Origin: Escherichia coli
Lineage (GTDB): Bacteria; Pseudomonadota; Gammaproteobacteria; Enterobacterales; Enterobacteriaceae
NCBI RefSeq assembly: GCF_003334815.1
Contig: NZ_QOWO01000006.1
Strand: one strand, 5' to 3'
Length of the DNA: 64,000 nt
Part shown: positions 19,223-22,766 of the stretch, one piece after another
Layout: each line of letters opens with the position of its first letter
How positions within the stretch are numbered: the stretch's first letter is position 1
The notes under the pieces: generated by a model
The model's database searches: none
What the model was told of the DNA's origin: nothing
The model's input: only the letters and a program-made list of their open reading frames with translations
Program-made: the position numbers and the translations under genes

Positions 19223-20236
19223 ATGAATACTGAAGCCACGCACGACCAAAATGAAGCACTTACTACCGGCGCTCGCCTGCGTAATGCTCGCGAACAACTA
19301 GGACTTAGTCAGCAGGCCGTTGCCGAGCGACTTTGCCTGAAGGTTTCCACGGTACGCGACATTGAAGAAGATAAGGCACCCGCCGATCTTGCTTCAACAT
19401 TCCTGCGCGGATATATCCGCTCTTATGCGCGTCTGGTACATATTCCAGAAGAAGAACTGCTGCCAGGGCTGGAAAAGCAGGCTCCACTTCGGGCTGCAAA
19501 AGTTGCGCCGATGCAGAGTTTTTCCCTCGGTAAACGCCGCAAAAAACGCGACGGCTGGCTGATGACCTTCACTTGGCTGGTGTTGTTTGTGGTTATCGGC
19601 CTGAGCGGTGCCTGGTGGTGGCAAGACCACAAAGCTCAGCAGGAAGAGATCACCACTATGGCCGATCAATCTTCGGCGGAACTGAGCAGTAATAGCGAGC
19701 AGGGGCAGAGTGTTCCATTAAATACGTCGACAACTACAGACCCGGCTACAACGTCCACGCCGCCAGCGTCTGTGGATACTACCGCAACCAACACGCAAAC
19801 ACCTGCCGTAACTGCGCCAGCACCAGCTGTTGATCCGCAACAGAATGCGGTTGTTTCGCCTTCGCAGGCAAATGTTGATACCGCCGCGACCCCGGCACCA
19901 ACGGCAGCAACAACGCCAGATGGTGCTGCGCCGTTGCCAACCGATCAGGCTGGCGTGACCACGCCGGTGGCTGATCCGAATGCGCTGGTGATGAACTTTA
20001 CTGCCGATTGCTGGCTGGAGGTCACTGATGCTACCGGTAAAAAATTGTTTAGCGGTATGCAGCGTAAAGACGGTAATTTGAACTTAACCGGCCAGGCACC
20101 GTACAAACTGAAAATTGGTGCGCCAGCCGCAGTACAGATCCAGTATCAAGGGAAACCTGTCGATCTGAGTCGTTTTATCAGAACTAACCAGGTTGCGCGT
20201 CTGACCCTCAATGCCGAACAATCACCGGCGCAGTAA
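19223..20236 (+). CDS. rodZ: RodZ cytoskeleton-associated cell-shape protein, 337 aa
   Basis: Track ORF; N-terminal HTH ([10 protein letters not shown]), single TM ([16 protein letters not shown]), Pro/Thr/Ala-rich linker. Confidence 0.9.
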
Positions 20237-20262: not shown

Positions 20263-21381
20263 ATGCATAACCAGGCTCCAATTCAACGTAGAAAATCAAC
20301 ACGTATTTACGTTGGGAATGTGCCGATTGGCGATGGTGCTCCCATCGCCGTACAGTCCATGACCAATACGCGTACGACAGACGTCGAAGCAACGGTCAAT
20401 CAAATCAAGGCGCTGGAACGCGTTGGCGCTGATATCGTCCGTGTATCCGTACCGACGATGGACGCGGCAGAAGCGTTCAAACTCATCAAACAGCAGGTTA
20501 ACGTGCCGCTGGTGGCTGACATCCACTTCGACTATCGCATTGCGCTGAAAGTAGCGGAATACGGCGTCGATTGTCTGCGTATTAACCCTGGCAATATCGG
20601 TAATGAAGAGCGTATTCGCATGGTGGTTGACTGTGCGCGCGATAAAAACATTCCGATCCGTATTGGCGTTAACGCCGGATCGCTGGAAAAAGATCTGCAA
20701 GAAAAGTATGGCGAACCGACGCCGCAGGCGTTGCTGGAATCTGCCATGCGTCATGTTGATCATCTCGATCGCCTGAACTTCGATCAGTTCAAAGTCAGCG
20801 TGAAAGCGTCTGACGTCTTCCTCGCTGTTGAGTCTTATCGTTTGCTGGCAAAACAGATCGATCAGCCGTTGCATCTGGGGATCACCGAAGCCGGTGGTGC
20901 GCGCAGCGGGGCAGTAAAATCCGCCATTGGTTTAGGTCTGCTGCTGTCTGAAGGCATCGGCGACACGCTGCGCGTATCGCTGGCGGCCGATCCGGTCGAA
21001 GAGATCAAAGTCGGTTTCGATATTTTGAAATCGCTGCGTATCCGTTCGCGAGGGATCAACTTCATCGCCTGCCCGACCTGTTCGCGTCAGGAATTTGATG
21101 TTATCGGTACGGTTAACGCGCTGGAGCAACGCCTGGAAGATATCATCACTCCGATGGACGTTTCGATTATCGGCTGCGTGGTGAATGGCCCAGGTGAGGC
21201 GCTGGTTTCTACACTCGGCGTCACCGGCGGCAACAAGAAAAGCGGCCTCTATGAAGATGGCGTGCGCAAAGACCGTCTGGACAACAACGATATGATCGAC
21301 CAGCTGGAAGCACGCATTCGTGCGAAAGCCAGTCAGCTGGACGAAGCGCGTCGAATTGACGTTCAGCAGGTTGAAAAATAA
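20263..21381 (+). CDS. ispG: IspG (GcpE), HMBPP synthase of the MEP pathway, 372 aa
   Basis: Track ORF; cysteine motifs CPTCSRQ and [11 protein letters not shown]. Confidence 0.95.
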
Positions 21382-21491
21382 TAACGTGATGGGAAGCGCC
21401 TCGCTTCCCGTGTATGATTGAACCCGCATGGCTCCCGAAACATTGAGGGAAGCGTTGAGGGTTCATTTTTATATTCAGAAAGAGAATAAAC

Positions 21492-22766
21492 GTGGCAAAA
21501 AACATTCAAGCCATTCGCGGCATGAACGATTACCTGCCTGGCGAAACGGCCATCTGGCAGCGCATTGAAGGCACACTGAAAAACGTGCTCGGCAGCTACG
21601 GTTACAGTGAAATCCGCTTGCCGATTGTAGAGCAGACCCCGCTATTCAAACGTGCGATTGGTGAAGTCACCGACGTGGTTGAAAAAGAGATGTACACCTT
21701 TGAGGATCGCAATGGCGACAGCCTGACTCTGCGCCCTGAAGGGACGGCGGGCTGTGTACGCGCCGGCATCGAGCATGGTCTTCTGTACAATCAGGAACAG
21801 CGTCTGTGGTATATCGGGCCGATGTTCCGTCACGAGCGTCCGCAGAAAGGGCGTTATCGTCAGTTCCATCAGTTGGGCTGCGAAGTTTTCGGTCTGCAAG
21901 GTCCGGATATCGACGCTGAACTGATTATGCTCACTGCCCGCTGGTGGCGCGCGCTGGGTATTTCCGAGCACGTAACTCTTGAGCTGAACTCTATCGGTTC
22001 GCTGGAAGCACGCGCCAATTACCGCGATGCGCTGGTGGCATTCCTTGAGCAGCATAAAGAAAAGCTGGACGAAGACTGCAAACGCCGCATGTACACTAAC
22101 CCGCTGCGCGTGCTGGATTCAAAAAATCCGGAAGTGCAGGCGCTTCTCAACGACGCTCCGGCATTAGGTGACTATCTGGACGAGGAATCTCGTGAGCATT
22201 TTGCCGGTCTGTGCAAACTGCTGGAGAGCGCGGGGATCGCTTACACCGTAAACCAGCGTCTGGTGCGTGGTCTGGATTACTACAACCGTACCGTTTTCGA
22301 GTGGGTGACTAACAGTCTCGGCTCCCAGGGCACCGTGTGTGCAGGCGGTCGTTATGACGGTCTTGTGGAACAACTGGGCGGTCGTGCAACACCGGCTGTC
22401 GGTTTTGCGATGGGCCTCGAACGTCTTGTATTGTTAGTACAGGCCGTTAATCCGGAATTTAAAGCCGATCCTGTTGTCGATATATACCTGGTGGCTTCAG
22501 GTGCTGATACACAATCTGCGGCTATGGCATTAGCTGAGCGTCTGCGTGATGAATTACCGGGCGTGAAATTGATGACCAACCACGGCGGCGGCAACTTTAA
22601 GAAACAGTTTGCCCGTGCTGATAAATGGGGTGCCCGCGTTGCTGTGGTGCTGGGTGAGTCTGAAGTGGCTAACGGCACAGCAGTAGTGAAGGATTTGCGC
22701 TCTGGTGAGCAAACGGCAGTTGCGCAGGATAGCGTAGCCGCGCATTTGCGCACGTTACTGGGTTAA
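21492..22766 (+). CDS. hisS: Histidyl-tRNA synthetase, 424 aa
   Basis: Track ORF; GTG start at 21492; class II aaRS motifs. Confidence 0.95.

Follow-up and report, generated by a model that had tools for sequence, protein, structure and literature searches.

Results

The sroE Gene in the Spacer between ispG and hisS

The window analysed here is a stretch of 64,000 nucleotides from Escherichia coli (assembly GCF_003334815.1, contig NZ_QOWO01000006.1), and the part of it considered in this study contains the genes rlmN, rodZ, ispG, hisS, yfgM, bamB, and der. The ispG gene (gcpE) occupies positions 20263-21381 of the plus strand and ends with the stop codon TAA at 21379-21381. The hisS gene follows on the same strand at 21492-22766 and starts with GTG at 21492; its ribosome-binding region AAAGAGAATAAAC and the GTG start codon, together at 21479-21494 of the plus strand, are conserved in the Enterobacteriaceae. 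The spacer between the two genes is 110 nt long (21382-21491). The stretch 21300-21600 is 100% identical to E. coli K-12 MG1655; it was found as a single copy in all 5426 complete E. coli genomes searched, with at least 99% identity in 5354 of them. The statements on the sequence made in a first-pass annotation of this DNA, namely those on the extent of the spacer, the ispG stop, and the GTG-initiated hisS, all hold after the coordinates were rechecked.

The structured element of the spacer is, base for base, the E. coli gene sroE (b4761), encoding the small RNA SroE of 92 nt, at 21381-21472 of the plus strand; the last base of the ispG stop codon is the annotated first base of SroE. The identity is supported by three sources. 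The Rfam scan gave one real match, to the family RF00371 (sroE), with 116.6 bits at a gathering threshold of 51, an E-value of 7.5e-31, and model positions 1-92 of 92 covered. The ncRNA sroE (b4761) annotated in NC_000913.3 at 2640595-2640686 of the minus strand corresponds exactly to window positions 21472-21381. Finally, the sequence of the window is identical to that of SroE printed in the supplement of PMC6172242. The element is thus an already annotated gene with an Rfam family and not a new one, though sroE is missing from the PGAP-annotated K-12 record. The first-pass annotation had called the function of the spacer unknown; it overlooked the annotated gene, although the biological function of SroE is still uncharacterised in the literature consulted. 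The upstream ispG, sroE, and the downstream hisS all lie on one strand, and the same order is seen in 19 other Enterobacteriaceae loci that reach the RF00371 threshold.

Folding of the Spacer

The minimum free energy of the whole spacer is -42.2 kcal/mol, compared with -26.5 +/- 3.3 kcal/mol for 200 dinucleotide shuffles, none of which was as good. The two hairpins proposed from the sequence are therefore far beyond chance (z = -4.77), and the pair probabilities exceed 0.99 in both stems.

Hairpin 1 (21389-21411, plus strand; -14.7 kcal/mol alone) has a stem of 10 bp in the minimum free energy fold and is not followed by a U-run. In its core of 8 bp, GGGAAGCG (21391-21398) pairs perfectly with CGCTTCCC (21402-21409). 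The first-pass annotation was correct about this hairpin, but its loop of CC has to be replaced by CCT (21399-21401, 3 nt), since the T that it had put in the 3' arm is unpaired. The single-stranded linker GTGTATGAT (21410-21418, plus strand) contains the -10-like hexamer TATGAT (21413-21418), whose role is putative.

Hairpin 2 (21419-21465, plus strand; -21.7 kcal/mol) has a lineage-specific interior. Its outer stem is formed by TGAACCC (21419-21425) and GGGTTCA (21459-21465), and the inner stem of the minimum free energy fold pairs GCUCCC (21431-21436) with GGG.AGC (21447-21453). The previously described larger second stem with a subsequent T-run is thereby confirmed, the U-run TTTTTATATT (21466-21475, plus strand) standing directly after the hairpin. 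The arm of hairpin 1 is indeed repeated in the second element: GGGAAGCG recurs at 21447-21454 of the plus strand, inside GAGGGAAGCG (21445-21454), as the 3' arm of the inner stem of hairpin 2. This second copy is not conserved outside Escherichia, and some exact 8-mer repeat is present in 5.4% of the shuffled spacers, so that the direct repeat alone is unremarkable.

We also observed a tandem 12-nt direct repeat, GAAACATTGAGG / GAAGCGTTGAGG (CATTGAGGG / CGTTGAGGG), at 21441-21461 inside hairpin 2. Its GCGTTGA part resembles GCGTTGAAt of the -35 region of the hisS promoter in other families, and may be a remnant of it.

Predicted Termination and Annotated Transcript Ends

The layout of an intrinsic terminator is present in hairpin 2, where the G+C-rich stem TGAACCC...GGGTTCA is immediately followed by the U-rich TTTTTATATT. 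The promoter and terminator scan of 20800-22000 called nothing; as its terminator rule (loop of at most 8 nt) is blind to hairpin 2, little follows from this result. The Enterobacter orthologue, GAACCCATTCTTTGGGTTT-TTTTTGTATA, was called as a terminator by the same simple scan. The annotated 3' end of SroE (21472) falls within the U-run, and its annotated 5' end is at the ispG stop codon.

SroE was grouped with CpxQ, SroC, and MicL among the RNAs that arise when the 3' end of a longer transcript is processed (PMC8313858). In the supplement of the same paper, the nearest upstream RegulonDB transcription start site is 2641880 (window position 20187); this site falls within the 3' end of rodZ, at a distance of 76 nt from the ispG ATG. 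In the portion of the Term-seq tables of Adams et al. 2021 (PMC7815308) considered here, no 3' end is given between MG1655 positions 2640500 and 2640699; either termination at hairpin 2 may be weak, or the end may be below the cut-off of that study. The same portion of the tables lists 3' ends inside ispG. The names sroE, hisS, and ispG had no match in the supplementary files of PMC12207403.

Two further observations on the published data concern the beginning of hisS. In the same portion of the Term-seq tables of PMC7815308, strong 3' ends are listed inside hisS, at window positions 21633 and 21784 (MG1655 2640434 and 2640283), 141 and 292 nt after the GTG. A peak of protein occupancy by IPOD-HR at 2640550-2640610 (window 21457-21517) is given in the supplement of PMC8313858, and spans the 3' arm of hairpin 2, the U-run, and the hisS start.

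A candidate promoter for SroE itself was considered at the end of ispG, TTGACG-N15-AATAAT (21356-21382, 10 of 12 consensus positions). It was rejected, as its spacing is too short and its predicted start does not coincide with the annotated 5' end. Moreover, AATAAT arises there solely from a duplication of the stop codon (TAATAA), and the sequence in most genera is TAACGTG.

Conservation in the Enterobacteriaceae

We compared 80 hisS loci from species-representative genomes, in all of which ispG is located directly upstream. Of the 22 Enterobacteriaceae loci scanned whose hairpin 2 has no large insertion, 19 reached the RF00371 threshold; of the 36 loci scanned in other families of Enterobacterales, none did. 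The alignment of 22 Enterobacteriaceae has the conserved order TGGGAAGC-loop-GCTTCCC, GTGTATGAT(T)GAACCC, a variable interior, GGGTTCATTTT, and the hisS ribosome-binding site; the longest invariant run of the spacer is TGTATGAT.

Only the outer stem and the U-run of hairpin 2 are kept across the 22 Enterobacteriaceae. The interior varies from 7 nt in Enterobacter to 36 nt, and consists of lineage-specific sequences that nevertheless still extend the stem. In Enterobacter, hairpin 2 is a plain textbook intrinsic terminator, GAACCC-ATTCTTT-GGGTTT with a T-run. The RNAalifold consensus consists of hairpin 1 and the outer stem of hairpin 2 only.

The arms of hairpin 1 are invariant in 21 of the 22 species, with a single compensatory change from G-C to U-A, and the pair closing its loop varies (GC, GU, AU, and CG). 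The covariation test on the same alignment found 93% of the cells paired and three double-change cells, which did not exceed the shuffle controls; the stems are almost invariant. As a consequence of this near absence of stem covariation, the RNA structure is supported by the folding energy and by the lineage-specific interiors rather than by covariation of the classical kind. In the interval 21389-21425, which runs from hairpin 1 through the linker to the end of the 5' arm of hairpin 2, 25 of the 31 non-loop columns are invariant across the 22 species, compared with 4 of the 23 fourfold-degenerate sites in the first 120 codons of hisS. The near-invariant arms and linker are a case of sequence constraint rather than of covariation, and this constraint is more than the structure alone demands.

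In some species the spacer contains insertions that appear, by eye, to be ERIC/IRU-like (loci L006, about 1331-1430; L054, 1261-1500; L048; and L076). The insertion in Pseudocitrobacter (L006) is in the loop of hairpin 1, and that in L054 is in the interior of hairpin 2. In Photorhabdus (L048) it is located at or within the -10 element of the hisS promoter, and separates the ancestral -35 element from a re-formed TATAAT. The ERIC/IRU-like insertions spare the arms and the linker.

The Spacer in Other Enterobacterales and Beyond

In Yersiniaceae, Pectobacteriaceae, Morganellaceae, and Budviciaceae, the spacer contains a conserved near-consensus promoter sequence TTGAAn-N18-TATAAT (10 of 12), which ends about 35 nt before the hisS GTG. 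In eight genera of Yersiniaceae, Hafniaceae, and Pectobacteriaceae the predicted promoter lies inside a hairpin; seven of them have TTGAAn-N18-TATAAT, and the one variant, from Hafnia (L029), is slightly weaker, TTGATG-N17-CATAAT. The genera include Rahnella, Serratia, Hafnia, Edwardsiella, Brenneria, Pectobacterium, and Dickeya, and the loci with this arrangement are L022, L025, L027, L028, L029, L033, L036, L040, L041, L044, and L045 (with hisS starting at 1501 in the locus numbering). The outer arms of these hairpins, GAACCCGA...TCGGGTTC with a subsequent U-run, are recognisably the same as those of E. coli hairpin 2, and the 3' arm and the U-run come directly after the -10 element. Such a layout, with a promoter inside a terminator, falls outside the Rfam sroE model.

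Morganellaceae and Budviciaceae share this promoter, in most cases with no convincing outer stem around it. In Pantoea and Tatumella (L037, L038, and L043) there is only a -10-like TATGAT with no convincing -35 element, in an analogous hairpin of different sequence. An upstream first hairpin with a T-rich tail was called as a terminator in Serratia and Proteus, at the position of E. coli hairpin 1; the latter occupies the place of the first ispG terminator in other Enterobacterales.

In three of the four Yersinia species sampled (L031, L032, and L076), an extra inverted repeat of about 60 nt (e.g., TTGATGTTGCGGCGAACATCGCTACAACGTCAA) is situated between the hisS promoter and the GTG, and stretches the predicted hisS leader to about 97 nt; it is absent in L026.

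The ispG-hisS spacer is about 80-410 nt long in most Enterobacterales, and 13-104 nt in Vibrionaceae and Orbaceae. Inspection by eye of the Vibrionaceae (L059-L075 and L077-L080) and Orbaceae (L057, L062, and L070) loci revealed nothing like the two-hairpin layout of SroE, and the structured spacer looks like an innovation of the Enterobacterales. The two-hairpin layout and the candidate promoters inside homologous hairpins of other families argue that this layout is older than the Rfam family. On this view, it would originally have wrapped the hisS promoter, with the transcription start in the 3' arm and transcripts unable to form the terminator.

Discussion

The identity of sroE, its fold, and the pattern of its conservation were observed directly in this study, whereas the existence of the SroE RNA and its processing from the ispG transcript are taken from the literature (PMC8313858 for the processing). 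Combining these data, we consider it probable that sroE comprises a protective hairpin and the ispG terminator, and that SroE is the stable processed remnant of the ispG transcript. The conservation of the outer stem and the U-run of hairpin 2, together with the freedom of its interior, is characteristic of terminators, not of sensors. Transcripts coming from ispG would pass through hairpin 1, which has no U-run, and a part of them would end at hairpin 2 and its U-run, a predicted intrinsic terminator located 20 nt before the hisS start codon. Endonucleolytic processing would then create the 5' end of SroE at the ispG stop. The product would be a stable remnant of 92 nt, extending from the ispG stop codon to the U-run and guarded by a hairpin at either end, with hairpin 1 probably serving as the protective 5' hairpin that stabilises the fragment. 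Such a structure would be constitutive and would contain no switch sensing a ligand, tRNA, or translation. Expression of hisS would then have to depend on read-through, on a promoter that overlaps sroE, or on the two together. The first-pass annotation had suggested a terminator- or attenuator-like switch or a processing site; the anatomy of hairpin 2 with its U-run and the annotated ends of SroE make the terminator and processing site essentially right, whereas the switch has to be abandoned for the reasons given below.

A cis-acting attenuator or leader tuning hisS, with termination at hairpin 2 decided by an alternative pairing that tRNA-His, a leader peptide, or a ribosome located at the ispG stop sets off, would explain why the element is always situated directly before the essential gene hisS. 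Moreover, the SroE region was scored as required by TraDIS in two Salmonella serovars, although most insertions there are not polar, and it was conjectured to be a T-box-like cis-regulator of hisS (Barquist et al. 2013). In E. coli K-12, there is indeed an exact alternative partner of 8 nt within hairpin 2 with which the 3' arm of hairpin 1 could pair. However, forcing CGCUUCCC (21402-09) onto GGGAAGCG (21447-54) yields -21.6 to -24.2 kcal/mol, compared with -40.1 to -42.2 kcal/mol for the native fold; thus the proposed competition of the two structures would have to overcome a difference of about 18 kcal/mol. A ribosome at the stop codon was modelled by masking 21381-21399, which covers the 5' arm of hairpin 1, and the terminator fold was still favoured (-23.1 vs -19.4 kcal/mol). 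Nor is the partner segment conserved: the second copy reads GACGGAAGCG in the GTDB representative of E. coli (L002), AACGGAAGCG in E. albertii, and GGGTTAGCG in Citrobacter, and in Enterobacter the whole interior is absent. RNAalifold detected only the two hairpins and no conserved alternative fold, and there was no match to a T-box or to His_leader in Rfam even at E <= 10. The sole open reading frame starting in the spacer (46 aa, ATG at 21428) was rejected as a leader peptide, since its start is in the non-conserved interior; it has scattered His residues, and most of it overlaps hisS in a different frame. In addition, SroE has been quantified in RNA-seq and Hfq studies, and among the nutrient and growth conditions that were compared, its level showed no significant difference. 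Because of the energy loss, the non-conserved partner, the Rfam null result, and the lack of conservation of the reading frame, we reject both the switch of competing hairpins and the published T-box-like conjecture, and regard attenuation of hisS at this site as very improbable.

It may instead be supposed that SroE is a trans-acting, chaperone-dependent small RNA, with the linker GUGUAUGAUUG as its seed and hairpin 2 with the U-tail as an Hfq-binding terminator. The succession of a 5' hairpin, a conserved single-stranded stretch, and a terminator resembles the layout of small RNAs derived from 3' UTRs. SroE was reported among the Hfq-associated small RNAs in nitrogen-starved E. coli, its level was modestly lower (-1.75-fold) in a Klebsiella hfq mutant, and one weak interaction, with ligB, was observed in vitro. 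On the other hand, nine of the ten predicted targets showed no binding in vitro in the same 2018 paper, where SroE was termed uncharacterised, and its overexpression had no phenotype in biofilm formation, motility, or fimbriae. An Hfq motif of the type (ARN)x was not found, and the U-tail, UUUUUAU, is short and interrupted. The double-stranded arms show the same invariance as the linker, for which a seed model offers no explanation. Action of SroE in trans, and the seed and Hfq-terminator assignment in particular, therefore seem to us unlikely.

The near-invariance of the core may have another source, namely that it is constrained mainly as DNA carrying the hisS promoter of the Enterobacteriaceae. 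This would be compatible with the terminator and remnant proposed above, adding a further layer to it. Hairpin 1 would then harbour the putative -35 element TGGGAA (21390-95), and the linker the putative -10 element TATGAT (21413-18). The predicted start near 21425 falls in the 5' arm of hairpin 2, and hisS transcripts lacking the complete terminator stem would escape termination, SroE being largely a by-product of the overlap between terminator and promoter. The sequence TGGGAA(21390)-N17-TATGAT(21413) is the best promoter-like match of the spacer (8 of 12), and it is invariant in 21 of the 22 species. The excess of invariant columns in the core over the fourfold-degenerate sites of hisS (25/31 vs 4/23), and the conservation of the stems without covariation, are in agreement with such a constraint. 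So are the predicted promoters inside the homologous hairpin in the eight genera mentioned above, with the start in the 3' arm, and the loss of their inner TATAAT in the Enterobacteriaceae. An RNA beginning at 21425 would have no terminator hairpin or unusual structure (z = -0.5), and the TraDIS call of a required region fits a promoter or a leader. At the same time, a match of just 8 of 12, with a poor -35 element and no extended -10, is below the threshold of the scan; the invariance reaches positions that a promoter would not need, which makes an RNA-level constraint likely too; and hisS could depend on read-through from the ispG promoter. We regard a promoter constraint of this kind as possible, though less likely than not.

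A predicted promoter start near 21425 would account for the frozen sequence as well as for the TraDIS result. If this is true, hisS transcripts escape the very terminator that insulates them from ispG transcription, and the overlap of the ispG terminator with the promoter or leader DNA of hisS may explain why a small RNA with no known target is strongly conserved and was scored as required by TraDIS. The stronger proposition, that the near-invariance of the sroE core reflects the overlap of terminator and promoter rather than an RNA regulator, that SroE is its stable by-product, and that the whole is the Enterobacteriaceae version of an older Enterobacterales design, is put forward tentatively, and we consider it rather unlikely.

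With sroE already annotated and represented by a family in Rfam, the element is of little value as a discovery, and the analysis is useful for a negative result that clarifies. Both the idea of competing hairpins before an aminoacyl-tRNA synthetase gene and the published T-box-like conjecture fail the tests of energy and conservation.

Relation to Known Systems

With respect to the SroE family (RF00371; K-12 b4761), the sequence, coordinates, neighbours, and two-hairpin fold are all identical; the element in the window is the type member itself, and no difference was found.

SroE also resembles the small RNAs derived from 3' UTRs, such as CpxQ, SroC, and MicL. Like them, it takes up the 3' portion of a coding transcript, ends at the predicted intrinsic terminator of the mRNA, and begins just past the open reading frame. 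However, members of that class have defined seeds, targets, and Hfq dependence, whereas SroE has no validated target in vivo and no phenotype. Unlike them, SroE also adjoins an essential gene downstream, the GTG of hisS being separated from the SroE 3' end by only 19 nt.

T-box leaders and the leader of the His operon (His_leader) share with sroE a terminator-like hairpin before an aminoacyl-tRNA synthetase gene. In contrast to them, sroE lacks a conserved antiterminator, a specifier or T-box sequence, and a leader peptide with His codons, and it has no match to the corresponding Rfam families. With intrinsic terminators, hairpin 2 has in common the G+C-closed stem and the U-run directly after it, which are its sole features conserved across genera; the E. 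coli hairpin differs from them in its length, with an interior of 33 nt containing internal loops.
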